Origin: Escherichia coli
Lineage (GTDB): Bacteria; Pseudomonadota; Gammaproteobacteria; Enterobacterales; Enterobacteriaceae
DNA: 64,000 bases
Assembly (NCBI RefSeq): GCF_050920415.1
Contig: NZ_CP169309.1
Reading direction: 5' to 3' (one strand)
Shown one piece after another: positions 31,995-50,314 of this stretch. Positions within the stretch are counted from its first letter, which is position 1. Every line of letters begins with the position of its first letter. The notes beneath the pieces were generated by a model. The model searched no databases. It saw only the letters and a program-made list of their open reading frames with translations, and was not told where the DNA came from. The translations under genes were made by a program, and so were the position numbers.

Positions 31995-32235
31995 ATTAAT
32001 CAAAATATTCAATATTTATATATTTCAATGTCTATTCATTTTATATGTGAATATATCAACCAGCAGAATACCTGTGTTCTAATTATTTTTAAATATTTTG
32101 AATGAATGCTTATTGTCTGATACACAAGAAATAACTCTCTTTTTATCGTTAAAAGATGATATTTCACTTTGCCCGCGCCGTGAAAGTCACTGATAATGCG
32201 TTCGTTCGTAAATTCAAAATGGCGTAATCTAATAT

Positions 32236-33735
32236 ATGCTAAATTTATTTGTTGGCCTTGATATATACACAGGGCTTTTGTTATTACTTGCTCTGGCATT
32301 TGTGTTGTTCTACGAAGCAATCAATGGTTTTCATGACACGGCGAATGCGGTGGCAACCGTTATTTATACTCGTGCCATGCAGCCACAGCTTGCCGTGGTG
32401 ATGGCGGCATTTTTTAACTTTTTTGGCGTATTGCTAGGCGGACTTAGCGTTGCCTATGCCATTGTCCATATGTTGCCAACCGATTTGTTGCTGAATATGG
32501 GGTCAACTCACGGCCTGGCGATGGTCTTTTCCATGCTGCTGGCGGCGATTATCTGGAACCTGGGAACGTGGTTCTTTGGTTTACCGGCCTCCAGTTCGCA
32601 TACCTTGATTGGTGCGATTATCGGCATCGGTTTAACCAACGCGCTTTTAACCGGCTCATCGGTGATGGATGCGTTAAACCTGCGTGAAGTGACCAAAATT
32701 TTCTCCTCGCTGATTGTTTCCCCTATCGTCGGCCTGGTCATTGCGGGAGGCCTGATATTCCTGCTGCGCCGCTACTGGAGCGGGACGAAAAAGCGTGACC
32801 GTATTCACCGCATTCCGGAAGATCGCAAAAAGAAAAAAGGCAAACGTAAGCCACCATTCTGGACGCGTATTGCGCTGATTGTTTCCGCTGCGGGCGTGGC
32901 GTTTTCGCACGGCGCGAACGACGGGCAGAAAGGGATCGGACTGGTGATGCTGGTACTGGTGGGGATTGCTCCTGCTGGTTTCGTCGTCAATATGAATGCG
33001 TCCGGCTATGAAATTACCCGTACCCGCGATGCCGTCACCAACTTTGAACACTATCTGCAACAGCATCCTGAACTGCCGCAGAAGTTGATTGCGATGGAAC
33101 CTCCATTGCCTGCGGCATCGACTGATGGCACGCAAGTAACGGAGTTTCATTGTCATCCGGCAAATACCTTTGATGCGATTGCGCGCGTTAAAACGATGTT
33201 GCCAGGTAATATGGAAAGCTACGAGCCGTTAAGCGTGAGTCAGCGCAGCCAGCTGCGCCGCATTATGCTGTGCATCTCTGATACCTCTGCGAAGCTGGCG
33301 AAACTGCCAGGCGTCAGTAAAGAAGATCAGAACCTGCTGAAAAAACTGCGCAGCGATATGTTAAGCACCATTGAGTACGCTCCGGTGTGGATCATCATGG
33401 CGGTAGCACTGGCGCTCGGCATTGGCACCATGATTGGCTGGCGTCGTGTAGCGATGACCATCGGTGAGAAGATTGGTAAGCGCGGCATGACGTATGCGCA
33501 AGGCATGGCGGCACAAATGACGGCGGCAGTGTCTATCGGCCTTGCCAGTTATATTGGGATGCCCGTCTCCACAACGCACGTCCTCTCGTCTGCGGTAGCA
33601 GGGACGATGGTGGTGGACGGCGGTGGGTTACAGCGTAAAACGGTAACCAGCATCCTGATGGCGTGGGTGTTTACTTTACCGGCGGCGATTTTTCTGTCTG
33701 GTGGGTTGTACTGGATAGCATTGCAGTTGATTTAA
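32236..33735 (+). CDS. pitB: Low-affinity inorganic phosphate transporter PitB
   Basis: 499-aa polytopic ORF; PiT family GANDGQKG motif; synteny. Confidence 0.92.
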
Positions 33736-33744
33736 CCTTCCTGA

Positions 33745-33781
33745 AAATGCCCGGTCCTGACGATCGGGCATTTCCATTTTT
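33745..33781. terminator. Bidirectional rho-independent terminator between pitB and yghT
   Basis: 9-bp stem aaatgcccg / cgggcattt followed by T run. Confidence 0.6.
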
Positions 33782-33783
33782 GA

Positions 33784-34476
33784 CTAGTGATAACCACACG
33801 CGGTCATAAAATCCGTAATCGCTTTTTCTGCATCAACCAGCACCTTTTCCAGTGGCTGATTGGCGTCGATATCAACCAGTTGTGCACCACCAAAGGTTAA
33901 CTGTGGCGTTATGGCAATCTTTCTCGCCAGCGATTCCCGTTTATGGTCGGGTTTACGCGCGCAGGCAACTTCAAGGTCAACATTGAGTTTGATAACCAGA
34001 TCAGGCTTATGGCTCGCCATCCAGTGAAATGCTTTACGTTCCTGGCTTGCCAGCCATGAGACAAACCGGCCGCCTTCAACGTTAGGTGGGAACACCGTAC
34101 CATCGTAAGCGCCAGGAATTTGGTCCTGAGGATAACGATCGGTTAAGACAATCAGCCCGCGACGACGACAGGCGAGCATATGACGAAAGCGTAACAGTCG
34201 GCGGGCGACGAAAGCGGTGATCACCAGGGCCGGAACCGGACCCGGCAATTTTTTTGCCGTTTTCACTTCATTTTTTTCAATAGTCTTGTGCAGAGACTTT
34301 CCCATCAACGGTAATTTTGTCACTGCACGACCGACATTTCCGGCCTGTTTTCCTAAATGAACTCTTTCGGCAGCACCATATTTTTCGACAACGGTAATAA
34401 GATGTTCACACACCGTTGACTTGCCTGAACCATCGCTACCAATAACGGCAATTAATGGAGGTGTTATTGACTGCAT
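33784..34476 (-). CDS. yghT: P-loop kinase-like protein (Walker [14 protein letters not shown] motif; dTMP-kinase-like fold inferred)
   Basis: 230-aa ORF; paralogous to the next two genes. Confidence 0.85.
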
Positions 34477-34649
34477 GAATATATCCTTAAATTTAAATAT
34501 CCATCCAAAATATTTATTTGGTTAATATGTTTTTATGAAAGCGTAATTCAGGTCAATGTCACAATTAACCATTGTCACAATAAGGTTGAACGGATATTCT
34601 GAGCACGGACCACGTAATATTCAATACATTATTTGCTGCCGGGTTTTTC

Positions 34650-35363
34650 GTGAATCAACGTAATATGTCAATAATTAATTCCACGCCAGTGCGTGTTATT
34701 GCCATTGTAGGATGTGATGGTTCAGGTAAATCGACCCTCACGGCAAGCCTGGTAAATGAACTGGCAGCAACAATGCCAACAGAACACATTTATCTCGGGC
34801 AATCGTCCGGGCGAATTGGCGAATGGATTTCACAGCTCCCTGTTATTGGCGCACCTTTTGGGCGTTATCTGCGAAGTAAAGCGGCACATGTGCACGAAAA
34901 GCCCTCCACACCGCCTGGCAATATTACTGCGCTGGTTATCTATCTGCTTTCCTGCTGGCGGGCGTATAAGTTTCGCAAAATGTTGTGTAAAAGCCAGCAA
35001 GGCTATCTGCTCATCACCGACCGCTACCCGCAGGTTGAAGTGCCGGGTTTTCGCTTTGATGGCCCGCAACTGGCAAAAAACACGGGCGGTAACGGCTGGA
35101 TAAAAATGTTAAGACAGCGCGAGCTCAAACTTTACCAATGGATGGCGTCTTATTTGCCCGTATTGTTGATTCGTCTTGGCATTGATGAACAAACCGCGTT
35201 TGCGCGTAAACCTGACCACCAACTGGCGGCGTTACAGGAAAAAATCGCTGTTACGCCGCAACTGACATTCAATGGTGCAAAGATCCTTGAACTGGATGGT
35301 CGGCAACCCGCCGATGAAATTCTGCAAGCGTCACTACGCGCAATTCACGCCGCGCTTTCCTGA
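34650..35363 (+). CDS. yghS: P-loop kinase-like protein
   Basis: 237-aa ORF; GCDGSGKST and ITDRYP motifs. Confidence 0.85.
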   Translation: MNQRNMSIINSTPVRVIAIVGCDGSGKSTLTASLVNELAATMPTEHIYLGQSSGRIGEWISQLPVIGAPFGRYLRSKAAHVHEKPSTPPGNITALVIYLLSCWRAYKFRKMLCKSQQGYLLITDRYPQVEVPGFRFDGPQLAKNTGGNGWIKMLRQRELKLYQWMASYLPVLLIRLGIDEQTAFARKPDHQLAALQEKIAVTPQLTFNGAKILELDGRQPADEILQASLRAIHAALS

Positions 35364-35393
35364 TCACCAAATGGATAGGGGATGATTTAACGA

Positions 35394-36152
35394 ATGGATG
35401 CACTACAAACACAAACTGTTAATAGTACAACCGCGCCGCAGCCCAACTACATTCCGGGGCTGATTGCGGTGGTCGGGTGTGATGGCACCGGTAAATCCAC
35501 ACTGACCACTGACCTGGTGAAATCGCTGCAACAACACTGGCAAACCGAGCGCCGCTATCTGGGGCTGCTCTCCGGCGAAGACGGCGACAAAATCAAACGG
35601 TTGCCGCTCGTTGGCGTCTGGCTGGAACGGCGACTGGCGGCCAAATCCTCGAAAACCCAAAGCATGAAAACCAAATCTCCGGCGCTATGGGCGGCGGTGA
35701 TTATGTACTGCTTCTCGCTGCGAAGAATGGCGAATCTACGCAAGGTTCAGCGACTGGCGCAAAGTGGCGTTCTGGTGGTCAGCGATCGCTTCCCGCAGGC
35801 TGAAATTTCGGGCTTTTATTATGACGGACCGGGGATTGGCATCGAGCGTGCGACCGGGAAAATCAGCATGTTTCTGGCCCAGCGCGAACGGCGTTTATAC
35901 CAAAAAATGGCGCAATACCGTCCTGAATTAATTATTCGTTTGGGGATTGATATTGATACTGCCATCTCCCGCAAGCCTGACCATGACTATGCCGAGCTGC
36001 AGGACAAAATCGGTGTCATGTCGACGATTGGCTATAACGGCACAAAAATTCTTGAGATTGATTCCAGAGCGCCCTACAGCGAAGTGCTGGAACAGGCACA
36101 GAAGGCGGTTTCTCTGGTTGCAATCGTTTCTGACCGCCGAAGTTTAACTTAA
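35394..36152 (+). CDS. yghR: P-loop kinase-like protein
   Basis: 252-aa ORF; GCDGTGKST and VSDRFP motifs. Confidence 0.85.
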   Translation: MDALQTQTVNSTTAPQPNYIPGLIAVVGCDGTGKSTLTTDLVKSLQQHWQTERRYLGLLSGEDGDKIKRLPLVGVWLERRLAAKSSKTQSMKTKSPALWAAVIMYCFSLRRMANLRKVQRLAQSGVLVVSDRFPQAEISGFYYDGPGIGIERATGKISMFLAQRERRLYQKMAQYRPELIIRLGIDIDTAISRKPDHDYAELQDKIGVMSTIGYNGTKILEIDSRAPYSEVLEQAQKAVSLVAIVSDRRSLT

Positions 36153-36197
36153 GGTTGGCGGGATACTTTTTATTATCAACGATAAGGTCAGGCTGAA

Positions 36198-37547
36198 TTG
36201 GCGGGGTTTAACATCAAACATTGGTTTGCAGATGGCGCGTTTCGCACCATTATTCGCAATAGCGCCTGGTTAGGCTCCAGTAATGTCGTGAGCGCTTTGC
36301 TGGGTCTGTTGGCGCTCTCGTGTGCCGGTAAAGGGATGACGCCCGCCATGTTTGGCGTACTGGTGATTGTGCAATCGTACGCCAAGTCGATCAGCGATTT
36401 TATTAAGTTTCAGACATGGCAGCTGGTGGTTCAGTACGGAACGCCAGCCTTGACCAATAATAATCCGCAGCAATTTCGCAATGTCGTCTCATTTTCCTTC
36501 TCGTTGGATATCGTCAGCGGCGCGGTGGCGATTGTCGGCGGCATTGCCTTACTCCCTTTTCTTTCCCATTCATTAGGTCTGGATGACCAAAGCTTTTGGC
36601 TGGCAGCGCTGTATTGCACGCTCATTCCTTCAATGGCTTCCTCCACACCGACCGGCATTCTGCGTGCAGTAGATCGCTTCGATTTGATTGCTGTACAGCA
36701 GGCGACGAAACCTTTTCTGCGCGCAGCGGGGAGCGTCGTAGCCTGGTATTTTGATTTTGGTTTTGCGGGTTTTGTTATTGCCTGGTACGCATCGAATCTG
36801 GTTGGCGGCACCATGTACTGGTGGTTTGCCGCGCGCGAATTACGCCGCAGAAATATCCATAACGCCTTCAAATTGAATCTGTTTGAGTCTGCCCGACACA
36901 TTAAAGGCGCGTGGAGTTTTGTCTGGTCAACCAACATTGCCCACTCCATCTGGTCGGCACGTAACTCGTGCAGCACAGTGTTGGTGGGGATCGTGTTAGG
37001 ACCCGCTGCCGCCGGGTTATTTAAAATCGCCATGACATTCTTCGATGCCGCCGGAACGCCAGCGGGTTTACTGGGCAAAAGTTTTTACCCAGAGGTGATG
37101 CGTTTAGATCCGCGTACCACCAGACCGTGGTTGTTAGGCGTGAAGTCCGGTTTACTGGCGGGCGGAATCGGTATTCTGGTGGCGCTCGCGGTGTTGATCG
37201 TCGGCAAGCCGCTCATTTCGCTGGTGTTTGGCGTTAAGTATCTCGAAGCGTATGACCTGATTCAGGTGATGCTTGGCGCAATTGTGATTTCGATGCTGGG
37301 CTTCCCACAGGAGTCATTGCTATTGATGGCGGGAAAACAGCGCGCTTTTCTCGTGGCGCAAACCATCGCCTCAATCGGCTACATCGTATTGCTGTTCATG
37401 TTCTGTCATCTGTTTGGCGTGCTGGGGGCTGCATTTGCTTACTTCGGTGGGCAATGTCTGGATGTGGTGCTCTCGTTAATTCCAACCTTAAAGGCATTTT
37501 TTCAGCGCCATTCCTTGCTTTATAACGCAGCCGGAGAGAAATCCTGA
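36198..37547 (+). CDS. yghQ: Polytopic inner-membrane protein, MOP/Wzx-like flippase family (putative lipid or polysaccharide flippase)
   Basis: 449-aa hydrophobic ORF; ORF-track start is TTG, so true start uncertain; synteny with yghRST. Confidence 0.75.
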   Translation: MAGFNIKHWFADGAFRTIIRNSAWLGSSNVVSALLGLLALSCAGKGMTPAMFGVLVIVQSYAKSISDFIKFQTWQLVVQYGTPALTNNNPQQFRNVVSFSFSLDIVSGAVAIVGGIALLPFLSHSLGLDDQSFWLAALYCTLIPSMASSTPTGILRAVDRFDLIAVQQATKPFLRAAGSVVAWYFDFGFAGFVIAWYASNLVGGTMYWWFAARELRRRNIHNAFKLNLFESARHIKGAWSFVWSTNIAHSIWSARNSCSTVLVGIVLGPAAAGLFKIAMTFFDAAGTPAGLLGKSFYPEVMRLDPRTTRPWLLGVKSGLLAGGIGILVALAVLIVGKPLISLVFGVKYLEAYDLIQVMLGAIVISMLGFPQESLLLMAGKQRAFLVAQTIASIGYIVLLFMFCHLFGVLGAAFAYFGGQCLDVVLSLIPTLKAFFQRHSLLYNAAGEKS

Positions 37548-38371
37548 TGATGAGAAAATATTTCCCGCTTGAGGCGAGCGAGCGTCTATTTATTGCAGTT
37601 GAAGAAGATGATGTCGTTGATGCGCAGGTCAGTTTACCGCCGACTATCGCAACAGGTTGTACCACCGAAATCATTCATGATAATTACGCGTTATGCCTGC
37701 AATTCTGGCTGAATGGCGTTGATCGTCAGGAATTACTGCGTTTAATCCACAAACAAGCCAAAGGCGAGGGGCTTACGGCTGACGAGCGTAAACAGTTTAA
37801 ATATATGCGGGCGCGTTATAAGCATCTACGTTTTGCCCAACGGTTGTATTTAAAAAAGCATCAGGCCGGATTTTTATTTGGCAAAACGACCGTTTTTCTT
37901 GGACGTTTTCAGGACGGCTTTCGTAACGGTAAGAAAAATATTGTGTCGTTTTACGGCAACCTTTTACGGATTTATTTAAGCTCTCCGGTCTAGTTGTTGG
38001 TGAACTATTCATTACGCCATAGCCAGTTAGAAAGCGTAAGCGGTTTTATTGCCTATCGGCAAAAGCAAATGCACCTCCTGAAAGAGATTATTGCCAAACC
38101 ACGGCTAACTGGCAGGGAATTTCATGATGTACGAAAAATAATCAGCCAGCAGGTTTCTTATTACGACACCCTAAGATCGCTTGATCCTGAAAATAAAGAA
38201 GCGTTACAGATTTCCCGCTTCCTCGCCGCCATTAATGGCCTGATGGGGGATAAACACGACGACATGGTGGCGGATGATATGGAAAACCGCCAGTCGTATG
38301 ATGCACCGATGGCGCTGGATAGCGATATTCGTCAGCGCTTAGAACTGCTGATTTCGCGTTTTCCGCTATAA
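37547..38371 (+). pseudogene. Hypothetical protein reading frame (275 codons) interrupted by a single in-frame TAG at 37991-37993; either a nonsense pseudogene or two adjacent ORFs
   Basis: ORF-track ORFs 37547-37993 and 37994-38371 are in the same frame and contiguous; start ATG overlaps the yghQ stop (TGATG). Confidence 0.4.
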
Positions 38372-38379
38372 CCGGAGCA

Positions 38380-38943
38380 ATGATGTCATCTCGTTTGATT
38401 ATTGCGCTGATTATCATGCTCTTAGCCCCGGGTGTGCAGGCGCACAATTTCGTCACTGGTAAAACGGTTACCCCTGTTTATATCCAGGAAGGCGGCGAGC
38501 TGCTTCTGAATAGCGACGACGAAATTCACTACCAAAAGTGGAACAGCACACAGCTGGCGGGAAAAGTCCGCATTATTCAGTATATCGCCGGGCGTAAGTC
38601 GGCGAAGAAAAAGAACTCACTGTTAATTAAAGCGGTTGAAGCGGCAAACTTTCCGCAGGATCGTTTTCAGCCCACCACCATTGTGAACACCGATGATGCC
38701 ATCTTTGGTACTGGCTATTTTGTCGTTGGCAAAATCGAAAAAAATAAACGCCGCTATCCGTGGGCGCAATTCGTTATTGACGGCAATGGACAGGGACGCG
38801 TTGTCTGGCGGTTGCCGGAGCAGAGTTCAACCATTCTGGTGCTGAATAAAGCCGGGCAAATTCAGTGGGCAAAGGACGGCAGCCTGACGCCGGAAGAGGT
38901 AGATCATGTCATTGCGCTGGCGCAGAAGCTGATCAATGAATAA
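38380..38943 (+). CDS. YtfJ-family periplasmic protein (signal peptide)
   Basis: 187-aa ORF; N-terminal signal MMSSRLIIALIIMLLAPGVQA; resembles E. coli YtfJ as I recall it. Confidence 0.6.
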   Translation: MMSSRLIIALIIMLLAPGVQAHNFVTGKTVTPVYIQEGGELLLNSDDEIHYQKWNSTQLAGKVRIIQYIAGRKSAKKKNSLLIKAVEAANFPQDRFQPTTIVNTDDAIFGTGYFVVGKIEKNKRRYPWAQFVIDGNGQGRVVWRLPEQSSTILVLNKAGQIQWAKDGSLTPEEVDHVIALAQKLINE

Positions 38944-38973
38944 AAAACTCAAAGGATTGAGGGCGTTAGTGAG

Positions 38974-40044
38974 ATGAAGCTGGTTGAACACTACATCATG
39001 CGTGGTACGCGCCGTCTGGTGCTGATTATCGTCGGTTTTCTGATCTTTATTTTCGCCAGCTACTCCGCACAGCGTTATCTGACCGAAGCGGCAAATGGGA
39101 CATTAGCTCTTGATGTTGTGCTGGATATTGTTTTCTACAAGGTGCTGATTGCACTGGAGATGTTGTTACCTGTTGGACTGTATGTGTCAGTTGGCGTGAC
39201 GCTAGGGCAGATGTATACCGACTCGGAAATTACCGCTATTTCTGCGGCGGGGGGGAGTCCGGGACGCTTGTACAAAGCCGTTCTTTATCTGGCGATACCG
39301 CTAAGTATTTTTGTCACCCTTCTGTCGATGTATGGTCGTCCGTGGGCTTATGCGCAGATTTATCAACTGGAGCAACAGTCGCAGTCGGAGCTGGATGTTC
39401 GCCAGTTGCGGGCAAAGAAATTTAACACTAACGATAACGGACGAATGATCCTTTCGCAGACGGTTGATCAGGATAATAATCGCCTGACTGACGTGCTGAT
39501 TTATACTTCTACTGCCAATCGAACCCGTATTTTCCGCGCCCGTTCGGTTGATGTAGTTGACCCATCACCCGAGAAACCGACCGTTATGTTGCATAACGGG
39601 ACCGCCTATCTTCTCGATCATCAGGGGCGTGACGACAACGAACAGATCTACCGTAATCTGCAATTGCATCTGAATCCGCTGGATCAAAGCCCTAACGTCA
39701 AACGCAAAGCAAAATCGGTCACGGAGCTGGCGCGCTCCGCCTTTCCTGCCGATCATGCCGAACTGCAATGGCGACAAAGCCGTGGCCTGACAGCATTGTT
39801 GATGGCGCTGCTGGCCATTTCATTAAGTCGGGTAAAACCGCGGCAAGGGCGATTTTCAACGTTATTGCCACTGACGTTGCTGTTTGTTGCCATTTTTTAT
39901 GGCGGCGACGTCTGCCGTACGCTGGTGGCTAACGGCGCGATTCCCCTCATTCCTGGTTTGTGGTTAGTACCCGGACTCATGCTAATGGGCCTGCTGATGC
40001 TGGTCGCACGCGACTTCTCTTTGCTGCAGAAATTTTCCCGATGA
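38974..40044 (+). CDS. LptF-like permease (YjgP/YjgQ family) paralog
   Basis: 356-aa ORF; N-terminal TM then large periplasmic segment then C-terminal TMs, the LptF/LptG architecture. Confidence 0.7.
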   Translation: MKLVEHYIMRGTRRLVLIIVGFLIFIFASYSAQRYLTEAANGTLALDVVLDIVFYKVLIALEMLLPVGLYVSVGVTLGQMYTDSEITAISAAGGSPGRLYKAVLYLAIPLSIFVTLLSMYGRPWAYAQIYQLEQQSQSELDVRQLRAKKFNTNDNGRMILSQTVDQDNNRLTDVLIYTSTANRTRIFRARSVDVVDPSPEKPTVMLHNGTAYLLDHQGRDDNEQIYRNLQLHLNPLDQSPNVKRKAKSVTELARSAFPADHAELQWRQSRGLTALLMALLAISLSRVKPRQGRFSTLLPLTLLFVAIFYGGDVCRTLVANGAIPLIPGLWLVPGLMLMGLLMLVARDFSLLQKFSR

Positions 40045-41120
40045 ATGTTTTCAGTCGCTATTTAATTCGTCATCTCTTTCTCGGTTTTGCCGCCGCCGCA
40101 GGGCTATTGCTGCCGCTCTTTACCACCTTCAACCTGATTAACGAACTGGATGATGTCAGCCCGGGTGGTTATCGCTGGACTCAGGCGGTGCTGGTGGTGC
40201 TGATGACCTTACCGCGCACACTGGTCGAACTTTCGCCGTTTATCGCCTTATTGGGAGGGATTGTCGGCCTGGGGCAGTTATCGAAAAACAGTGAGCTTAC
40301 CGCCATTCGCAGCACGGGGTTTTCTATCTTCCGTATTGCACTGGTGGCGCTGGTTGCCGGGATATTGTGGACTGTTTCATTAGGCACGATAGATGAGTGG
40401 GTGGCGTCGCCATTGCAGCAACAGGCGCTGCAAATCAAATCGACTGCCACTGCGTTGGGGGAGGACGATGACATTACCGGCAATATGCTGTGGGCCAGGC
40501 GTGGTAATGAATTTGTGACGGTGAAATCGCTGAACGAGCAGGGCCAGCCGGTGGGCGTGGAGATATTTCATTACCGCGACGATCTCTCGCTCGAATCCTA
40601 CATTTATGCACGCAGTGCCACCATTGAAGACGACAAAACGTGGATCCTGCATGGTGTGAATCATAAAAAATGGCTGAATGGCAAAGAAACGCTGGAAACA
40701 TCTGATAATCTTGCCTGGCAATCGGCCTTCACCAGTATGAATCTTGAAGAGTTATCGATGCCGGGAAATACTTTTTCTGTCCGTCAACTTAATCATTACA
40801 TCCATTATTTGCAGGAAACCGGGCAACCCAGCAGCGAATACCGCTTTGCACTGTGGGAAAAACTGGGACAACCCATCTTGACCCTTGCGATGATTTTGCT
40901 GGCTGTGCCGTTTACCTTTAGTGCCCCGCGTTCGCCTGGGATGGGTAGCCGTCTCGCTGTAGGCGTCATCGTGGGGTTACTCACCTGGAGCAGCTATCAA
41001 ATCATGGTCAATCTGGGATTGCTATTTGCGTTGAGCGCACCTGTTACCGCGCTCGGTTTACCGATAGCGTTTATGCTGGTGGCGTTGAGCCTGGTGTATT
41101 GGTATGACAGTCAACATTAA
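40041..41120 (+). CDS. LptG-like permease (YjgP/YjgQ family) paralog
   Basis: Start at ATGA overlap with upstream gene (MNVFSRYLIRHL); same architecture; 359 aa. Confidence 0.7.
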   Translation: MNVFSRYLIRHLFLGFAAAAGLLLPLFTTFNLINELDDVSPGGYRWTQAVLVVLMTLPRTLVELSPFIALLGGIVGLGQLSKNSELTAIRSTGFSIFRIALVALVAGILWTVSLGTIDEWVASPLQQQALQIKSTATALGEDDDITGNMLWARRGNEFVTVKSLNEQGQPVGVEIFHYRDDLSLESYIYARSATIEDDKTWILHGVNHKKWLNGKETLETSDNLAWQSAFTSMNLEELSMPGNTFSVRQLNHYIHYLQETGQPSSEYRFALWEKLGQPILTLAMILLAVPFTFSAPRSPGMGSRLAVGVIVGLLTWSSYQIMVNLGLLFALSAPVTALGLPIAFMLVALSLVYWYDSQH

Positions 41121-41154
41121 ACCCGCCGTGGCGCAGCACCACAGCGGGCTCACA

Positions 41155-42327
41155 TTACTGCTTCAGAGTAGCAAATGCCTGAATGATGGCATCGATTTGC
41201 TCACGAGTGTGGGCAGCGTTTACGCTACAGCGCAGCAGCGTGATGCCTGCAGGCGCGGCAGGTGGCAGGATAAGATTCACATAAACGCCCAGCGAAATAA
41301 GCTCGCGCCAGATGCGTAAACCTTCCTCTTTCGAACCGATTATTACTGGCACTACCGGGCTAATATGTGAACTTAACTCGTAACCCAGTTTTTGCAGACC
41401 GTCATACAGATGGCTGGCGTTATCCATCAGCTTTTGCCGCAACTCTGGTTGTGAGGCAATGGTTCTTAACGACGAGCGCACGGTCGCAATGCAGGACGGA
41501 GAAGGAGAGGCGGTAAAAATATACGGGCGGCTGCCGTAGCGCAGCACTTCCATCGCTTCCGAACCGACAGCAAAACCGCCAATCGAGGCCAGACTTTTAC
41601 TGAAAGTACCAACGATAATATCCACATCATCTTCAACGCCAACGGCTTCAGCCAGTCCGCGCCCCGTTGCGCCTAACACGCCAAACGAATGCGCTTCATC
41701 GACAATCAAATAACCACCGAGACGACGTTTGATATCAACAATTTCCGCCAGCGGCGCAACGTCACCGAGCATACTGTAGATGCCTTCAACGATGATAATC
41801 GCCTCTTTTGCCCGTTCACCGAGGCGAACCATGCGCCGTTCCAGATCTTTAGCATCGTTATGGCGGAAACGAATAATTTCCGCTCCACCGAGAGAACAGG
41901 CGTCATAAATACTGGCGTGGCTATCGGCATCCAGTAACACCACGGCGTTATGGTCGGCAAGTGCGCTGATGACACCTAAATTAGCGGTATAACCGGTTGA
42001 AAAAACGATAGCGGTAGGGCGATTGAAAAACTCGGCAATCTCTTTCTCTAACGCCAGATGTGGCGCATAGCTGCCATTAGCCATACGAGAACCGGTAGTG
42101 CCGGTGCCTTGTGCCGCTAATGCTGCCTGACCTTCGGTGATGGCATCATGATTGAAAGTTAAACCGAGATAATTATTAGTCCCGGCCAGAATCACTTTTT
42201 TATTGCCGATACGGCCTTCAGTGGCGGAGTACACTTCATCAATACAGGTACCAAACGGCGTTAATCCGTTGTCACTAAATTGCAGTCGCTCGCCAGCAAG
42301 GCGCGCATATTTATCGTATAGCCCCAT
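41155..42327 (-). CDS. PLP-dependent alpha-oxoamine synthase (serine palmitoyltransferase / BioF / Kbl family)
   Basis: 390-aa ORF; conserved VDEAHSFGVLG and PLP-lysine GTFSKSL motifs. Confidence 0.8.
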   Translation of the reverse strand: MGLYDKYARLAGERLQFSDNGLTPFGTCIDEVYSATEGRIGNKKVILAGTNNYLGLTFNHDAITEGQAALAAQGTGTTGSRMANGSYAPHLALEKEIAEFFNRPTAIVFSTGYTANLGVISALADHNAVVLLDADSHASIYDACSLGGAEIIRFRHNDAKDLERRMVRLGERAKEAIIIVEGIYSMLGDVAPLAEIVDIKRRLGGYLIVDEAHSFGVLGATGRGLAEAVGVEDDVDIIVGTFSKSLASIGGFAVGSEAMEVLRYGSRPYIFTASPSPSCIATVRSSLRTIASQPELRQKLMDNASHLYDGLQKLGYELSSHISPVVPVIIGSKEEGLRIWRELISLGVYVNLILPPAAPAGITLLRCSVNAAHTREQIDAIIQAFATLKQ

Positions 42328-42575
42328 TATTTATTCTCCAGCCATGGAAGTAGAGTTTCCATTAATTGCGCAGGGGTTTTGACATCCAGCAGAATATTAA
42401 TAGGAATGGAAATATCGAATCTGTCTTCCAGCATCATTAAGAGATCCATCACTTTGATCGACTCCAGGCCAAGATCGTTGACGAGATCGCTGTCGGGCTT
42501 AATTTCCACACCGTTTTCGACCAAATCCTGTAAACAGGAAAGGATGTAATCCATTACTATTTCACGATTTACCAT
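42327..42575 (-). CDS. Acyl carrier protein (dedicated, not housekeeping acpP)
   Basis: 82-aa acidic ORF with phosphopantetheine-attachment-like motif DLGLESIKVMDL. Confidence 0.75.
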   Translation of the reverse strand: MVNREIVMDYILSCLQDLVENGVEIKPDSDLVNDLGLESIKVMDLLMMLEDRFDISIPINILLDVKTPAQLMETLLPWLENK

Positions 42576-42606
42576 AGAAACGTTAACACACCTTTAAACA
42601 AGACAA

Positions 42607-43521
42607 TCAAAATAGCCCGCTGCGTAATGCGTGTTCCAGGCTAATCCCGGGAAACCAATTAATATCTTCAGAAATACGGTTATTACTTGCTGACCAGTCG
42701 GCGTGGGTTAATTCACGGATTTTCGAGCGGGTCAGCATAGGTTCTTTACCTGCCAGGCGACTCAACGCGGTACTGATATCCGCAAGGCAGGTGAGTACCG
42801 ACAGAGGAATACCAACCATTCGAACGGAACCGCAACGGGCGTCGGCGGCAAGTTGCTGTACGCGTTGCCAGTCATAGCCGCCGGCGACGCCATCGCATAA
42901 TTCATAGGTTTGCGTTTGTACAGTTTCGGCGCTTAACCACTGCCCCACGGCTTGCGCGAAATCGGTGACGTGCAGGAAAGAGAGCTGTGTATCTGGCGCA
43001 CCAAGTCGTGGCAGCAGGCCGCGCAGCATCCAGCCAAACAGCGGTTTTAACTCTTTATCGCCGGGACCATACACGGCTGTCGGGCGAAAAATGCCCAGCG
43101 TAATTTCGTCAGCCATTGCGGTCAGTCGTTGTTCGGCGACGTGTTTGGAATTTGCGTACCAGGAGAGTTCGGGATGGCGCGCCGCCAGCGAAGAGATAAA
43201 CAGAAAACGTTGGCAAAAGCCGCTCTCTTTTGCCGCTTGCATCAGGCGCAGGCTGCCGTCAACGTTACAGCGGGTAAAAATCTCTTCTTTGTGTCCGCGC
43301 ACTTGCCCGGCGCAATGGACCACCGCGCTGGCTCCGGCAACCAGTTCGCTAAGCGAATGTGTATCTTCCAGCGAACCGCGCACCCAGATGAGATTATCAT
43401 TGACGTGAGCGCGGGCAGTACGCGTCAATGCGCGAACGTGAAAGCCGCGGGCGAGCAGGTTATCGATAATATATTTACCGATAAACCCGGTAGCGCCCGT
43501 CACCGCGACAGTTTGATTCAT
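42607..43521 (-). CDS. NAD(P)-dependent epimerase/dehydratase-family (extended SDR) oxidoreductase; candidate 3-keto reductase
   Basis: 304-aa ORF; N-terminal Rossmann motif VTGATGFIG. Confidence 0.75.
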   Translation of the reverse strand: MNQTVAVTGATGFIGKYIIDNLLARGFHVRALTRTARAHVNDNLIWVRGSLEDTHSLSELVAGASAVVHCAGQVRGHKEEIFTRCNVDGSLRLMQAAKESGFCQRFLFISSLAARHPELSWYANSKHVAEQRLTAMADEITLGIFRPTAVYGPGDKELKPLFGWMLRGLLPRLGAPDTQLSFLHVTDFAQAVGQWLSAETVQTQTYELCDGVAGGYDWQRVQQLAADARCGSVRMVGIPLSVLTCLADISTALSRLAGKEPMLTRSKIRELTHADWSASNNRISEDINWFPGISLEHALRSGLF

Positions 43522-45236
43522 GCCATGGATTCCTGCACATGAAGGCTTGCAGCATAACGTTTTTTCGCTTCCGCACGGGCAGGCTTGCCGGAGGACGTTC
43601 GGGGAATACTGTGGGGCGGCAACAGATCGATAGCCGCTGTTACGCCAAATTCGCTTTGGATCCGTGCTGCCAGTGCGTGGATAAGCTGCCCACGACGTTC
43701 TTCGTCGCTGATCCTACACTGGATCTGCAAAATGATTTTTTCCTGGGCGGTAACAAAAGCAATCGCATCGCCAGAATGAATTTCCGGTTCCTGTTCCGCA
43801 ATATATTCAATATCCTGCGGCCAGATATTACGGCCACGAATAATAATCAGATCTTTAATGCGCCCGGTGACATACAGATAACCATCCAGCAGATAACCGA
43901 GGTCGCCGGTATCTAACCAGCCCGTCGCGGCAATCTCGTCTTGCGAAACCTGGTCGCCAAAGTAACCGCTCATCAGGCTGGGGCCGGAGATGCAAATATG
44001 GCCTACCACACGTTCCGCGACCGGCATACCTGCTTCATTGCGGATTTCAATGCCATGTTCCGGCAACGCTTTACCGCAGTTGACGAAAGTCGATACGGCG
44101 CGTGTTTCAGCACCCGGCGCGACGGCTTTGCCCTGATATTCAAGGATGTCGCGATCCACTTCGTTAACCACAACCCCGGAGGCTTCATCAGAGAAGCTGA
44201 CAGCCAGCGCATTTTCTGCCAGTCCGTAGCACGGCATGAAAGTTTTATCGTCAAAGTTAACCTGACGGAAACATTCAGCAAATTGGTGGAGTTGTTCTGC
44301 GGAGATGGGTTCTGCGCCAATACCAGCGACGCGCCAGCACGAGAGATCCAGTTCAGCGAGATCTTTTTCATTCACGCGGCGCTGACACAATTCATAGCCA
44401 AACGGCGGCGCGACGGAAACTGTGCCACGATTTTTACTGATCAATTTAAGCCATTGCAGCGGACGCATGGCAAAATCCTGAGTGCGCAAATAATCTACTG
44501 AGAGCTGCGTGGCGACGGGGGTCAGGAGAAAGCCGACCAGTCCCATATCATGGTAGAAAGGCAGCCAGGAGACGCAGCGGTCGCCAGGGCGTAATTTAAT
44601 GCCATCGTGGCTTATAGCACGTAGATTAGCCATCACTTCGCGATGGGTGATAATGACGCCACGGGGAAAACGGGTGCTGCCGGAGGTGTACTGGAGGTAG
44701 GCGATATCGTTCGGAACTGGACGCTGGAGTACAACATCGGCTTCCGGTAATGCCTTAAACCAGGCGTGGCTTAAAACATGTAATTCGGGGTTGTTATGCG
44801 TAGCAGCATTGACCAGTGGCAACCACTCATCACCAGTGATAATGGCTGCGGGCTGGCAACTAGCCAGTAAACCTTGCAGTTTAGCGCTCCAGGAATCCCG
44901 CTGACCGACGCCCATTGGAATCGCTAACGGGACGGCGACTAAGCCGGCATACTGGCAGGCAAAAAAAGCCTCTACAAACCCGCTACTCGTTTCGGCAATC
45001 AGCGCCACGCGATCGCCTTTTTTCAGATTTAGTGATAACAACCGCTTCGCACCAGCTTCGGCACACGCTTTTAACGTCTGATATTCCAGTTGATCTTCAA
45101 GTTGGCAACGTCTGTCATAAAAATTCATTCCGGCGCTACTCAGAGCGGCGTAGTCCAAAGCATCAACCAGCGTTGGAAAATCGGCATAGCGCATAGGTAG
45201 GGAATGCGTAAAGATGTTATTAGACATATACACCAC
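43518..45236 (-). CDS. Fatty acyl-AMP ligase / acyl-ACP synthetase (AMP-binding superfamily)
   Basis: 572-aa ORF; AMP-binding signature YTSGSTRFPRGV; overlaps downstream reductase gene by 4 nt. Confidence 0.8.
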   Translation of the reverse strand: MVYMSNNIFTHSLPMRYADFPTLVDALDYAALSSAGMNFYDRRCQLEDQLEYQTLKACAEAGAKRLLSLNLKKGDRVALIAETSSGFVEAFFACQYAGLVAVPLAIPMGVGQRDSWSAKLQGLLASCQPAAIITGDEWLPLVNAATHNNPELHVLSHAWFKALPEADVVLQRPVPNDIAYLQYTSGSTRFPRGVIITHREVMANLRAISHDGIKLRPGDRCVSWLPFYHDMGLVGFLLTPVATQLSVDYLRTQDFAMRPLQWLKLISKNRGTVSVAPPFGYELCQRRVNEKDLAELDLSCWRVAGIGAEPISAEQLHQFAECFRQVNFDDKTFMPCYGLAENALAVSFSDEASGVVVNEVDRDILEYQGKAVAPGAETRAVSTFVNCGKALPEHGIEIRNEAGMPVAERVVGHICISGPSLMSGYFGDQVSQDEIAATGWLDTGDLGYLLDGYLYVTGRIKDLIIIRGRNIWPQDIEYIAEQEPEIHSGDAIAFVTAQEKIILQIQCRISDEERRGQLIHALAARIQSEFGVTAAIDLLPPHSIPRTSSGKPARAEAKKRYAASLHVQESMA

Positions 45237-45598
45237 GAAAAAAATTGGATATCAGAAATAAAATGACAATAATGCGGTGGATTATATAGGCATAAAAGAT
45301 AAATGAGATAGTATTTTCATCGGTGCGATATTGAACATTGATTTAAATAATAGGTTTGGCTTTGTTGTTTTTATTGTGAATTATATTTAATTTATGAATA
45401 TATTAAGAAGAAGCCTTGTTTGGTTGCCTTAAATCGACAAAAGGCATTGAGGCGCTTCTGTGTAGTCTCTGACCTTATCTTAATTATTAATAAATACTAT
45501 TTATTCTTTGTTTGTATTCTTTGGGTTGATTATTAAGATGCCGTTCGTTGCTGTTGCAATCTGTTTGTCACCGTTAATTATTTGTTATCCACAGAGAT
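45237..45598. promoter_or_regulatory. AT-rich divergent promoter region between the acyl-AMP ligase operon and yghO
   Basis: 362 bp, visibly AT-rich with multiple A/T tracts; flanked by divergently oriented start codons. Confidence 0.45.
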
Positions 45599-46741
45599 AT
45601 GGAATGCGATCTGCTGATGATTAAAATTGAAAAAGTAATTAATAAAAATGACCTTAAGGCATTTATCGCTTTTCCGTCATCACTTTATCCCGATGATCCA
45701 AACTGGATACCCCCTTTGTTCATTGAACGCAGCGAGCATTTGTCGGCGAAGAATCCGGGGACGGACCATATTATCTGGCAGGCGTGGGTAGCAAAAAAAG
45801 CGGGGCAGATAGTCGGGCGGATTACCGCGCAAATCGATACCTTGCACCGCGAGCGTTACGGTGACGATACCGGTCATTTCGGCATGATTGACGCCATTGA
45901 TGATCCGCAGGTTTTTGCCGCGTTGTTTGGCGCAGCGGAAGCGTGGTTGAAGTCACAAGGTGCAAGTAAGATCAGCGGGCCTTTCAGCCTGAATATCAAT
46001 CAGGAAAGCGGATTACTGATTGAAGGTTTCGACACTCCGCCCTGTGCGATGATGCCGCACGGTAAACCGTGGTATGCCGCGCATATTGAACAATTGGGTT
46101 ATCACAAAGGTATTGATTTACTGGCGTGGTGGATGCAACGAACCGATCTCACTTTCTCTCCGGCGCTAAAAAAACTGATGGATCAGGTGCGCAAAAAGGT
46201 GACCATTCGCTGCATCAAGCGCCAGCGGTTTGCCGAAGAGATGCTGATCCTGCGTGAGATTTTCAACTCTGGCTGGCAGCACAACTGGGGATTTGTGCCG
46301 TTTACCGAACATGAATTCGCTACCATGGGCGATCAACTAAAGTATCTGGTACCGGACGATATGATCTACGTCGCCGAGATTGATTCTGCTCCCTGCGCGT
46401 TTATAGTCGGCTTGCCGAACATCAACGAGGCGATTGCCGATCTGAACGGAGCGCTCTTTCCCTTCGGCTGGGCAAAATTGCTGTGGCGCTTAAAAGTCAG
46501 CGGTGTGCGAACTGCGCGAGTGCCGCTGATGGGCGTGCGTGACGAGTATCAGTTCAGCCGCATCGGCCCGGTGATTGCGCTGTTATTGATTGAAGCCTTA
46601 CGCGATCCGTTTGCTCGCCGGAAGATCGATGCGCTGGAAATGTCATGGATCCTCGAAACCAATACAGGCATGAATAACATGCTGGAACGCATTGGAGCGG
46701 AGCCGTACAAGCGTTACCGATTGTATGAAAAGCAGATTTGA
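45599..46741 (+). CDS. yghO: YghO, intact; putative GNAT-like acyltransferase (family assignment tentative)
   Basis: 380-aa uninterrupted ORF; synteny next to glcC; K-12 yghO is an annotated pseudogene as I recall. Confidence 0.7.
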   Translation: MECDLLMIKIEKVINKNDLKAFIAFPSSLYPDDPNWIPPLFIERSEHLSAKNPGTDHIIWQAWVAKKAGQIVGRITAQIDTLHRERYGDDTGHFGMIDAIDDPQVFAALFGAAEAWLKSQGASKISGPFSLNINQESGLLIEGFDTPPCAMMPHGKPWYAAHIEQLGYHKGIDLLAWWMQRTDLTFSPALKKLMDQVRKKVTIRCIKRQRFAEEMLILREIFNSGWQHNWGFVPFTEHEFATMGDQLKYLVPDDMIYVAEIDSAPCAFIVGLPNINEAIADLNGALFPFGWAKLLWRLKVSGVRTARVPLMGVRDEYQFSRIGPVIALLLIEALRDPFARRKIDALEMSWILETNTGMNNMLERIGAEPYKRYRLYEKQI

Positions 46742-46747
46742 TGGCAG

Positions 46748-47512
46748 TCACCCCTGCTTCATCTCCAGCGGCACCGCCGAGCGAATCAAATGGTGGCCTT
46801 CCAGCTCGATATCGTGGAGATTCTTTTTCACGGTCCGCACATGATCGCGTGCTGCGCGCTGGGCGACGTGTGGCAGCCGCTGCAACACCGCGTTGTAGAT
46901 CCGCGCATGCTGGCGATCGATCTGCTTTTTTTGCTGTGGTCGATGGTAGAGATTATTTACGCTGGCAAACACTGAATTAAACATCAGGTCGGTCAATGAT
47001 TGCAGTGTAAACACCAGCACCTGATTGTGGGAAGCCTGACAAATGGCGAGATGGAAAGCGTGATCCAGTTGTGCATGTTCGATCAGCGAAATCTCTTTGT
47101 TGTTCTCACTGGCGGCGAGCATTTTTTCATAACAGCGGGTTATCACAACAAAATCAGCCTGGGTTCCCAGCGTTGCCGCCAGCCTTGCCGATTCGCCCTC
47201 CAGCAATGCGCGAACGTCGAGCAGATCGTACAGCGTTCGCGGCTGCGTACTGAACAGATGGATCAGCGGGCTGGTGTCCTGCACCCGATTGAGCCGTGCG
47301 ACACGAGAATCGCGCCCCTGCGCCGTTTCAATAATCCCACGCCCGCGCAGCACGGTCAGCCCTTCACGCAGTGCGGAGCGTGAGAAGCCGAGCTTTTCAC
47401 ACAGTCGACGTTCCGAGGGAAGCGGCTGACCGACCTTCAGCACGCCGTCGATAATTAACCGTTCGATACTCTCTGCAACCACTTCGCAAATAGGGCGACG
47501 TTCATCTTTCAT
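46748..47512 (-). CDS. glcC: GntR-family transcriptional activator of the glc operon
   Basis: Start moved to internal Met (MKDERRPICE) giving 254 aa; GntR HTH; divergent from glcD. Confidence 0.9.
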   Translation of the reverse strand: MKDERRPICEVVAESIERLIIDGVLKVGQPLPSERRLCEKLGFSRSALREGLTVLRGRGIIETAQGRDSRVARLNRVQDTSPLIHLFSTQPRTLYDLLDVRALLEGESARLAATLGTQADFVVITRCYEKMLAASENNKEISLIEHAQLDHAFHLAICQASHNQVLVFTLQSLTDLMFNSVFASVNNLYHRPQQKKQIDRQHARIYNAVLQRLPHVAQRAARDHVRTVKKNLHDIELEGHHLIRSAVPLEMKQG

Positions 47513-47762
47513 TCCCGGACCTCGTGCACAGGTAGGACCAATTTTTCTGTTCTTGATTCGCAAAACACGCACATCACGTAAGTGATTATGTTACATCAAT
47601 TTAACATTAGTTTAACCAAAGAAAGGTCACAGAGCTGGAAAAAAAATGGTCTGACCGGTAGCTAAAGAGATAGACGAAAACGAAAAGCCCGCTTAATAAC
47701 TGTTCACAGAAGCAGCGCGCAAAAATCAGCTGCCACACAACACAACAAAGCGAAGCCTACTC

Positions 47763-49262
47763 ATGAGCATCTTGTACGAAGAGCGTCTTGATGGCGCTTT
47801 ACCCGATGTCGACCGCACATCGGTACTGATGGCACTGCGTGAGCATGTCCCTGGACTGGAGATCCTGCATACCGATGAGGAGATCATTCCTTACGAGTGT
47901 GACGGGTTGAGCGCGTATCGTACGCGTCCATTACTGGTTGTTCTGCCTAAGCAGATGGAACAGGTGACGGCGATTCTCGCTGTCTGCCACCGTTTGCATG
48001 TACCGGTAGTGACCCGTGGCGCAGGCACCGGACTTTCTGGCGGTGCGCTGCCGCTGGAAAAAGGTGTGTTGTTGGTGATGGCGCGCTTTAAAGAAATCCT
48101 CGACATTAACCCCGTTGGTCGCCGTGCGCGTGTGCAGCCGGGCGTGCGTAACCTGGCGATCTCCCAGGCTGTTGCGTCGCATAATCTCTATTACGCGCCG
48201 GATCCTTCCTCACAAATCGCCTGTTCCATTGGCGGCAACGTGGCGGAAAACGCCGGGGGCGTCCACTGTCTGAAATATGGTCTGACCGTACATAACCTGC
48301 TGAAAATTGAAGTGCAAACGCTGGATGGCGAGGCACTAACGCTGGGATCGGACGCGCTGGATTCACCCGGTTTTGACCTACTGGCGCTGTTCACCGGATC
48401 GGAAGGCATGCTCGGCGTGACCACCGAAGTGACGGTAAAACTGCTGCCGAAGCCCCCTGTGGCACGAGTTCTGTTAGCCAGCTTTGACTCGGTAGAAAAA
48501 GCCGGACTTGCAGTTGGTGACATCATCGCTAATGGCATTATCCCCGGCGGGCTGGAGATGATGGATAACCTGTCGATCCGCGCGGCGGAAGATTTTATTC
48601 ATGCCGGTTATCCCGTCGATGCCGAAGCAATTTTATTGTGTGAGTTGGACGGCGTGGAATCTGATGTACAGGAAGACTGCGAGCGAGTTAACGGCATCTT
48701 ACTGAAAGCGGGCGCGACTGACGTCCGTCTGGCGCAGGATGAAGCGGAGCGCGTGCGTTTCTGGGCCGGCCGCAAAAATGCTTTTCCGGCGGTAGGACGT
48801 ATCTCCCCGGATTACTACTGCATGGACGGCACCATCCCGCGCCGCGCGTTGCCTGGCGTACTGGAAGGCATTGCCCGTTTATCGCAGCAATATGATTTAC
48901 GCGTTGCCAACGTCTTTCATGCCGGAGACGGCAATATGCACCCGTTAATCCTTTTCGATGCCAACGAACCCGGTGAATTCGCCCGTGCGGAAGAATTGGG
49001 TGGGAAGATCCTTGAACTCTGTGTTGAAGTAGGCGGCAGTATCAGTGGGGAACATGGCATCGGGCGCGAAAAAATCAATCAGATGTGCGCCCAGTTCAAC
49101 AGTGATGAAATTACTACCTTTCATGCAGTCAAGGCGGCGTTTGATCCTGATGGTTTGCTGAACCCTGGGAAAAACATCCCCACACTGCACCGCTGCGCTG
49201 AATTTGGTGCCATGCACGTGCATCACGGTCATTTACCTTTCCCTGAACTGGAGCGTTTCTGA
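47763..49262 (+). CDS. glcD: Glycolate oxidase subunit GlcD (FAD-binding)
   Basis: 499-aa ORF; FAD-linked oxidase family; synteny. Confidence 0.93.
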   Translation: MSILYEERLDGALPDVDRTSVLMALREHVPGLEILHTDEEIIPYECDGLSAYRTRPLLVVLPKQMEQVTAILAVCHRLHVPVVTRGAGTGLSGGALPLEKGVLLVMARFKEILDINPVGRRARVQPGVRNLAISQAVASHNLYYAPDPSSQIACSIGGNVAENAGGVHCLKYGLTVHNLLKIEVQTLDGEALTLGSDALDSPGFDLLALFTGSEGMLGVTTEVTVKLLPKPPVARVLLASFDSVEKAGLAVGDIIANGIIPGGLEMMDNLSIRAAEDFIHAGYPVDAEAILLCELDGVESDVQEDCERVNGILLKAGATDVRLAQDEAERVRFWAGRKNAFPAVGRISPDYYCMDGTIPRRALPGVLEGIARLSQQYDLRVANVFHAGDGNMHPLILFDANEPGEFARAEELGGKILELCVEVGGSISGEHGIGREKINQMCAQFNSDEITTFHAVKAAFDPDGLLNPGKNIPTLHRCAEFGAMHVHHGHLPFPELERF

Positions 49263-50314
49263 TGCTACGCGAGTGTGATTACAGCCAGGTACTGCTGGAG
49301 CAGGTGAATCAGGCAATTAGCGATAAAACGCCGCTGGCGATTCAGGGAAGCAATAGCAAAGCCTTTTTAGGTCGTCCTGTCATCGGGCAAACGCTGGATG
49401 TGCGTTGCCATCGTGGCATTGTTAATTACGACCCGACCGAGCTGGTGATTACCGCGCGTGCCGGAACGCCGCTGGTGGCGATTGAAGCGGCGCTGGAGAG
49501 CGCGGGGCAAATGCTCCCCTGCGAGCCACCGCATTATGGTGACGAAGCCACCTGGGGCGGTATGGTCGCCTGCGGGCTGGCGGGGCCGCGTCGCCCGTGG
49601 AGCGGTTCGGTTCGCGATTTTGTCCTCGGCACGCGCATCATTACCGGCACTGGAAAACATCTGCGCTTTGGTGGCGAAGTGATGAAAAACGTTGCCGGAT
49701 ACGATCTCTCGCGGTTAATGGCCGGAAGCTACGGCTGTCTTGGCGTGCTCACTGAAATCTCGATGAAAGTGTTGCCGCGACCGCGCGCCACACTGAGCTT
49801 GCGTCGGGAAATAAGCCTGCAAGAAGCCATGAGTGAAATCGCCCAGTGGCAACTCCAGCCATTACCCATTAGTGGCTTATGTTACTTCGACAATGCGTTG
49901 TGGATCCGCCTTGAAGGCGGTGAAGGATCGGTAAAAGCAGCACGTGAACTGCTGGGTGGCGAAGAGGTTGCGGGTCAGTTCTGGCAGCAATTGCGTGAAC
50001 AACAACTGCCGTTCTTCTCATTACCGGGCACTTTATGGCGTATTTCCTTACCCACCGATGCGCCGATGATGGATTTACCCGGCGAGCAACTGATCGACTG
50101 GGGCGGCGCGTTACGTTGGCTGAAATCGACAGCCGATGACAATCAAATCCATCGCATTGCCCGCAACGCAGGCGGTCATGCGACCCGCTTTAGTGCCGGA
50201 GATGGTGGCTTTGCCCCGCTACCGGCTCCTTTATTCCGCTATCACCAGCAGCTTAAACAGCAGCTCGACCCTTGCGGCGTGTTTAACCCCGGTCGTATGT
50301 ACGCGGAACTTTAA
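49262..50314 (+). CDS. glcE: Glycolate oxidase subunit GlcE
   Basis: 350-aa ORF overlapping glcD stop. Confidence 0.92.
   Translation: MLRECDYSQVLLEQVNQAISDKTPLAIQGSNSKAFLGRPVIGQTLDVRCHRGIVNYDPTELVITARAGTPLVAIEAALESAGQMLPCEPPHYGDEATWGGMVACGLAGPRRPWSGSVRDFVLGTRIITGTGKHLRFGGEVMKNVAGYDLSRLMAGSYGCLGVLTEISMKVLPRPRATLSLRREISLQEAMSEIAQWQLQPLPISGLCYFDNALWIRLEGGEGSVKAARELLGGEEVAGQFWQQLREQQLPFFSLPGTLWRISLPTDAPMMDLPGEQLIDWGGALRWLKSTADDNQIHRIARNAGGHATRFSAGDGGFAPLPAPLFRYHQQLKQQLDPCGVFNPGRMYAEL

Follow-up and report, generated by a model that had tools for sequence, protein, structure and literature searches.

Replacement of an eight-gene segment of a predicted sphingolipid locus by IS5 in Escherichia coli K-12

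The K-12 form and the intact form of the locus

A stretch of Escherichia coli DNA of 64,000 nucleotides (contig NZ_CP169309.1; hereafter the window) carries a locus of 13 genes between pitB and glcC, eight of which lie between yghQ and yghO. In E. coli K-12, a single copy of the insertion sequence IS5 is found at this position. Comparison of the two arrangements indicates that the window very probably represents the ancestral, intact form of the locus, and that K-12 lost the segment through an IS5-mediated deletion. An earlier note on this DNA, made from the letters alone, had proposed an IS5-associated loss in K-12. The proposal is now supported by the unlike flanks of the K-12 IS5, by the intact locus of the human faecal isolate G8 and by the wide distribution of the segment.

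Strain JW5503 was used as the K-12 representative. In BLAST, its locus aligns to positions 32000-37266 and 45639-51000 of the window with 95-96% identity, and nothing aligns between them. What K-12 has in the gap is an entire IS5, exactly 1,195 bp long, including the terminal inverted repeats at its two ends (GGAAGGTGCG...CGCACCTTCC) and an annotated IS5 transposase. The whole-locus alignment thus shows that the eight genes are absent from K-12 and that IS5 lies between yghQ and yghO, as the earlier note had stated, with yghQ truncated. The note had also placed the boundaries at the ends of the two genes, which is not the case: the stretch replaced in K-12 (37266-45638) ends inside both of them. 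The end of the deletion is uncertain by ±1 bp, because the first G of IS5 is also the next base of yghQ. The deletion takes away 282 bp at the 3′ end of yghQ and the first 40 bp of yghO, so that K-12 is without the 94 C-terminal codons of yghQ, all of the eight genes, a 371-bp intergenic region and codons 1-13 of yghO. Accordingly, K-12 YghQ ends after residue 355 of 449 and is annotated as lacking its C-terminus. K-12 yghO is kept from codon 14 and is fused to 11 IS5-derived codons; the N-terminus of its product, read from the IS5 end, is MISYQGLVRTFL, whereas the native start is MECDLLMIKIEKVI.

The junctions in K-12 read ...CCTGATTTAG, followed by IS5, followed by TTAATAAAAATG... IS5 is preceded by TTAG and followed by TTAA, 4-bp flanks that do not form a direct duplication. 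The target consensus of IS5 is YTAR, and a simple IS5 insertion would carry an identical 4-bp duplication on both sides. In K-12, each flank continues without a break as native yghQ or yghO sequence, and each fits YTAR, which a random 4-mer would do by chance in 1 of 64 cases per site. Because the two flanks differ and both are IS5 targets, the arrangement is better explained by an IS5-mediated deletion than by a simple insertion. CTAA and CTAG have been cited as IS5 targets, and the same source includes wbbL and yghO in its list of K-12 IS5 sites (PMC11677980).

Direction of the change

The flanks of the locus in isolate G8 are 99.96% and 99.98% identical to those of K-12, with one mismatch per side, and between them G8 carries, contiguously, the complete 8.39-kb stretch including all eight genes. 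The sole mismatch in the left flank is C/T at yghQ codon 356. In a set of 5,426 complete E. coli genomes, which is also the basis of the counts given below, the segment was found over at least 80% of its length in 4,066 (approximately 75%), always chromosomal and single-copy. The carriers include BL21(DE3), W, E24377A and O111 strains. The same gene order from pitB to glcD is seen in E. whittamii and in two further Escherichia lineages outside E. coli, and the yghQ C-terminal and yghO N-terminal ends that K-12 lacks are conserved as coding sequence out to Citrobacter. The ratio of nonsynonymous to synonymous divergence (dN/dS) is 0.03-0.17 for all 13 genes, both within E. coli and across genera. 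With G8 as the comparison, dS ranges from 0.07 to 0.25 among the eight genes, apart from the short acpR with a value of zero, and the flanking genes give 0.07 (glcC) and 0.29 (glcD). The resemblance between segment and flanks in dS, together with the low dN/dS, agrees with vertical descent. Those reading frames that were checked are intact in G8, E. whittamii and C. amalonaticus.

Order of events and alternative explanations

In G8, the window and most strains, the left site is TCAG, which is not an IS5 target; in K-12 it is TTAG. The difference is a C-to-T change at the first base of yghQ codon 356, which converts CAG (Gln) to TAG (amber) and thereby creates the TTAG that abuts IS5. Since the TTAG target exists only through this change, the K-12 IS5 junction formed only after the amber allele. 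A 40-base probe detected the T allele followed by native downstream yghQ sequence in nine natural isolates, including LD27-1 and Br_178_kylling. All nine have a different deletion, with no insertion sequence at the junction, which starts 37 bp downstream and runs to gspL, removing the eight genes, yghO, the glc operon, sslE and most gsp genes. The PitB, YghT, YghS and YghR proteins of these isolates are identical to those of K-12. Because isolates with a different deletion share the amber allele, it is native sequence older than both deletions, and by parsimony across the two lineages the nonsense mutation came first.

These observations suggest the following course of events. The C-to-T change would have made yghQ codon 356 an amber codon, truncating the flippase and creating a site that fits YTAR. 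IS5 transposase would then have acted at TTAG and at the TTAA located 40 bp inside yghO; action at both is probable because two YTAR sites of native sequence flank IS5. Finally, the 8.4 kb between both sites would have been lost, leaving one IS5 between TTAG and TTAA. For this last step, recombination of two directly oriented IS5 copies and intramolecular transposition of a single IS5 are about equally likely routes. Loss of the flippase may have selected for the loss of the synthesis genes.

Theoretically, the K-12 state could be the ancestral one, with the eight genes being an island inserted between yghQ and yghO elsewhere. It is true that the 13-gene set occurs in differing contexts and gene orders across genera, and the whole cluster may have moved horizontally long ago. 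However, the truncated gene ends of K-12 refute an insertion: its yghQ lacks 94 conserved C-terminal codons and its yghO begins on IS5 sequence. Foreign flanking repeats, which the earlier note had named as a sign of insertion, were looked for, and no direct or inverted repeat pairs bracketing the segment were found; there is likewise no tRNA gene in the segment and no integrase in its annotation. The GC content of the segment (0.46-0.54) is similar to that of the flanks, without a compositional step. Its presence in 75% of E. coli genomes, its occurrence at the same site in other Escherichia species and its flank-like dS also argue against an insertion, which we regard as practically negligible. 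The possibility that the 8.4-kb deletion arose first by illegitimate recombination, and that IS5 later inserted in the joint, with one copy of the duplication subsequently mutated, deserves slightly more attention but is still very improbable. TTAG and TTAA differ at only one base, and the IS-free deletion starting 37 bp away in nine genomes indicates that this spot can delete without IS5. Such a scheme nevertheless needs an extra A-to-G change exactly in the duplication, one that recreates the native T-allele sequence of yghQ, and it has to accommodate the fact that both flanks are native contiguous yghQ and yghO sequence, each a proper YTAR site. No IS5-free joint of the K-12 type was seen either; the non-K-12 genomes matched the junction query over one flank or IS5 only, in a search that was not aimed directly at an IS5-free joint.

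Some observations do weigh against an IS5-mediated deletion preceded by the nonsense mutation. None of the 5,426 genomes combines the T allele with an intact cluster, and none contains the intermediate, in which the cluster is still there and IS5 is bordered by a proper duplication at one of the two sites. Two such arrangements were searched for, one in which IS5 runs into TTAG and the yghQ sequence beyond it, the other in which the sequence upstream of yghO ends in TTAA and then meets IS5; the matches were chance or partial ones only. Because no genome holds a single-insertion intermediate, the order of the IS5 events was not observed. Moreover, given the one-base difference between the flanks, a later point change in a once-identical duplication is possible.

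Content of the locus in the window

The gene content of positions 32000-51000 of the window was taken from the list of open reading frames and from the RefSeq annotation of strain MFDS1022581 (NZ_CP169399.1), which shows a single-base difference from the window in these 19 kb. The gene order is pitB, yghT, yghS, yghR, yghQ, the eight genes, yghO, glcC and glcDEF. In the annotation of this near-identical genome there are exactly eight coding sequences and 0 transposases between yghQ and yghO, which bears out the earlier note on that point. The size of 7.7 kb given there holds for the coding span only, the interval 37547-45598 being 8,052 bp. The features are as follows.

32236-33735: pitB, phosphate transporter gene
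33784-34476, minus strand: yghT, P-loop protein resembling dTMP kinase, surviving in K-12 and belonging to the conserved 13-gene set (annotation, weak family match, co-occurrence with spt in many genera)
34650-35363, plus strand: yghS, P-loop paralogue (annotation, family search, co-occurrence)
35394-36152, plus strand: yghR, P-loop paralogue (annotation, family search, co-occurrence)
36198-37547, plus strand: yghQ, full-length (449 amino acids), MOP-family flippase-like membrane protein (MOP flippase family match)
37263-37265, plus strand: yghQ codon 356, CAG in the window
37266-45638: stretch replaced by a single IS5 in K-12, 8,373 bp in the window, ±1 bp (BLAST of the K-12 locus against the window and reading of the junctions)
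37547-38371, plus strand: gene of 274 codons without a family name, CHAD-domain fold
38383-38943, plus strand: gene of a YtfJ-family protein (TIGR01626, 209 bits, cut-off 151)
38974-40044, plus strand: lptF2, paralogue of the lipopolysaccharide-export permease LptF (TIGR04407, 323 bits, cut-off 230)
40041-41120, plus strand: lptG2, paralogue of LptG (TIGR04408, 304 bits, cut-off 240)
41155-42327, minus strand: spt, serine palmitoyltransferase (NF047599 equivalog, 599.6 bits, cut-off 500)
42327-42575, minus strand: acpR, specialised acyl carrier protein (100% identity to BL21(DE3) ECD_02853)
42607-43521, minus strand: epi/cerR, reductase of the NAD-dependent epimerase/dehydratase family (annotation and family match)
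43518-45227, minus strand: aasR, fatty acyl-AMP ligase loading AcpR (NF006624, 871 bits, cut-off 600)
45228-45598: AT-rich intergenic region of 371 bp between the divergent aasR and yghO, GC approximately 0.41, wholly gone in K-12
45599-46741, plus strand: yghO, full-length, presumed ceramide synthase (N-acyltransferase; aca/cerS)

The promoters of both aasR and yghO presumably lie inside the intergenic region. Positions 33000-50000 of the window have a match of at least 99% in only one or two of the 5,426 genomes, the others being approximately 95-97% identical, which marks the window as DNA of an E. coli lineage that is rare or locally divergent.

Synthesis genes

By its sequence, the cluster can be identified as the published E. 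coli sphingolipid locus (aasR, cerR, acpR, spt, lptF2 and lptG2) with the addition of a YtfJ-like gene and the CHAD-fold gene. The locus is predicted to make a ceramide-type sphingolipid, with aasR, acpR, spt, cerR/epi and yghO as the synthesis genes. Spt exceeds the NCBIfam equivalog cut-off for proteobacterial serine palmitoyltransferase and is 98.7% identical to the BL21(DE3) enzyme, and AasR is 97.4% identical to ECD_02851 of the same strain. The acpR gene, coding for 82 amino acids, is immediately upstream of spt, its stop overlapping the spt start; the NCBIfam acyl carrier protein scores of AcpR are below the curated cut-offs. The cerR/epi reductase matches only the broad epimerase/SDR family and has a 34%-identical relative in a Caulobacteraceae spt locus. 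YghO gave no match in Pfam or NCBIfam searches, and is 42% identical to the product of a gene in a Caulobacteraceae spt locus.

Spt, AcpR and AasR of BL21(DE3) have been characterised biochemically and are active when expressed, and AcpR of this strain carries 4′-phosphopantetheine (Padilla-Gomez et al. 2022, PMC9386255). In the same work, ECD_02852 (reductase) and yghO (N-acyltransferase) were assigned to dihydroceramide synthesis and equated with CC_1164 and CC_1154, respectively; the products were formed after overexpression only (PMC9386255). The BL21(DE3) genes ECD_02850-02854 (yghO/aca, aasR, epi, acpR and spt) represent the same locus in the same gene order, and the window proteins are 96-100% identical to theirs. 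That report describes five genes as a feature of E. coli B, without mention of K-12 or IS5 (PMC9386255), whereas the locus described here has 13 genes, is present in approximately 75% of complete E. coli genomes and is deleted in K-12.

Export genes and comparison with Caulobacter

The locus contains a second LptF/LptG pair, both members of which score above the equivalog cut-offs, and no gene for an ABC ATPase. Caulobacter needs LptF2/G2 to transport sphingolipid and cannot do without them when it makes anionic sphingolipid; these paralogues bind the LptB of the housekeeping system (bioRxiv 10.64898/2026.04.12.717747). YghQ matches the MOP flippase family, and in a Caulobacteraceae locus a relative of 33% identity adjoins aasR. 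A flippase, CC_1166, has been proposed in the Caulobacter locus (PMC11324152). The export genes are probably the flippase gene yghQ together with lptF2 and lptG2, which would send a ceramide-type lipid to the outer membrane.

The Caulobacter crescentus locus CC_1152-CC_1168 (ccna_01212-01226; PMC11324152, bioRxiv 10.64898/2026.04.12.717747) resembles the E. coli locus, and like it has no LptB of its own. Unlike the Caulobacter locus, the E. coli locus contains no relatives of the Caulobacter head-group genes and no LptC2; it has instead YghR, YghS, YghT, the CHAD-fold protein and the YtfJ-like protein. We considered YghR/S/T as possible relatives of the ceramide kinase CpgB and rejected this possibility: CpgB of Caulobacter has a GGDG motif and is a diacylglycerol-kinase-type enzyme (PMC10331486), whereas YghR/S/T belong to the P-loop proteins and resemble dTMP kinase only weakly, the matches being far below the curated cut-off. 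Because the Caulobacter head-group genes are absent and CpgB is unlike YghR/S/T, the E. coli head group is expected to be different, and the final E. coli lipid probably differs from the Caulobacter lipid.

The CHAD-fold gene

The protein of 274 amino acids shows the helical-bundle fold of CHAD domains. It has no Pfam match, even at E up to 10, and no NCBIfam match, and its profile did not match the sequences of solved structures. CHAD domain proteins (PDB 6qv5, 6rn5 and 3e0s) bind polyphosphate. In contrast to these proteins, the present gene is found in a sphingolipid locus rather than beside polyphosphate genes. In the window, it contains an in-frame amber codon at 37991-37993 (TGG to TAG, W149*), which is the only difference from the nearest genome (NZ_CP169399.1) in 19 kb. 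The tryptophan at this position is invariant in 15 orthologues. The stop could be a real mutation or a sequencing error.

The 13-gene set in Enterobacterales

The genes yghT, yghS, yghR and yghQ, the eight genes and yghO co-occur in more than 10 enterobacterial genera, in at least three gene orders. The set was found in Citrobacter, Pseudocitrobacter, Hafnia, Serratia, Sodalis, Mangrovibacter, Pluralibacter, Rosenbergiella and Pantoea. This co-inheritance is good evidence that the 13 genes may be taken as one functional unit. It also explains the orphan look of yghQRST and yghO in K-12, to which the earlier note had drawn attention: these five survivors are left over from a unit whose other genes were deleted. 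The accessory genes without an assigned role are those of the CHAD-fold and YtfJ-like proteins and of the P-loop proteins YghR, YghS and YghT.

There are additional observations on the surroundings of the set. In Citrobacter, Pseudocitrobacter, Hafnia and Pluralibacter, pitB adjoins it as well, on the opposite side in Pluralibacter, and pitB may travel or work with the cluster. Serratia sp. M24T3 carries spt at two loci; one of them has the full 13-gene set, the other consists of acpR-spt only.

Is the pathway functional?

One may ask whether the segment is functionally dead in most E. coli, a decaying relic whose loss in K-12 has no biological meaning. Recurrent independent losses (K-12, O157:H7, the yghQ-gspL deletion and several partial forms) and the amber stop in one gene of the window itself are consistent with this, and so is the fact, which also counts against our own reading, that the literature found contains no report of a sphingolipid from wild-type E. 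coli. Because of this last point, the term functional pathway is based on sequence conservation and on assays of overexpressed enzymes. However, the dN/dS values indicate that all 13 genes are conserved within E. coli and across genera, the frames checked are intact in three genomes, the full gene set is annotated in BL21(DE3), and the BL21(DE3) enzymes are active when expressed (PMC9386255). On balance, a relic appears unlikely.

A more far-reaching possibility, which we offer as a tentative idea that may well prove wrong, is that most wild E. coli make and export an uncharacterised sphingolipid, with a head group added by YghR/S/T and the CHAD-fold protein, and that this lipid went unnoticed because K-12 lost the pathway. 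The synthesis genes may then have been purged because the YghQ nonsense mutation made synthesis without export harmful. A possible analogue for such harm is known from Caulobacter, where a block of LptF2/G2 is lethal in cells making anionic sphingolipid.

Relation to previous work

The loss in K-12 is a correct finding and an ordinary kind of event, and the gene cluster has already been described for BL21(DE3) and drawn for E. coli UTI89 (bioRxiv 10.64898/2026.04.12.717747). The absence of the sphingolipid genes from K-12 is visible in any genome alignment. In the searchable literature, which did not cover subscription comparisons of the B and K-12 genomes, no statement was found that K-12 lost sphingolipid genes through IS5. 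Likewise, we did not meet, in the literature found, the exact end points, the unlike flanks, the amber allele common to nine isolates, the prevalence figures or the CHAD fold. A parallel is the loss of O-antigen in K-12 through the IS5 in wbbL (rfb-50). In both cases, this element put a pathway for a surface lipid or glycolipid out of action in K-12. At wbbL, IS5 was simply inserted, whereas between yghQ and yghO it marks a deletion of 8.4 kb and its two flanks differ.

K-12 is the reference for the envelope and lipid biochemistry of E. coli, and it lacks a predicted 13-gene lipid pathway that is kept under purifying selection in approximately 75% of complete genomes. Results obtained in K-12 on yghQ, yghR, yghS, yghT and yghO concern remnants of a broken system, and their interpretation should be tempered. 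The intact locus gives a direct route to whether E. coli makes sphingolipids; the question of real interest is whether wild E. coli makes and exports one. Published K-12 work treats yghQ as intact, and clusters of at least 10 variants in this gene have been reported for one evolved isolate (PMC8170033). As a conjecture, these clusters may be read-mapping artefacts at the IS5 junction.

Distribution of the K-12 junction and further losses

The yghQ-IS5 junction is present in 347 of the 5,426 genomes, and the full arrangement of truncated yghQ, IS5 and yghO in 334. Judging by strain name, genome size and junction coordinate, the sampled junction records all look like K-12 derivatives (MG1655, W3110-type, DH, C600/EC600, BW25113 and O16:H48). 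Other forms of loss are also seen. In O157:H7 (strain 7.1_Anguil), pitB is cut at a point matching window position 33472, and the whole ygh/sphingolipid region is absent. Several partial forms of the locus end inside lptF2, spt or aasR. Other lineages thus lost the locus independently of K-12. In O157:H7 7.1_Anguil, the pitB cut is followed by IS3 and IS66 remnants and then by an island that carries nleE, nleB and the pseudogene of a toxin-like glycosyltransferase.

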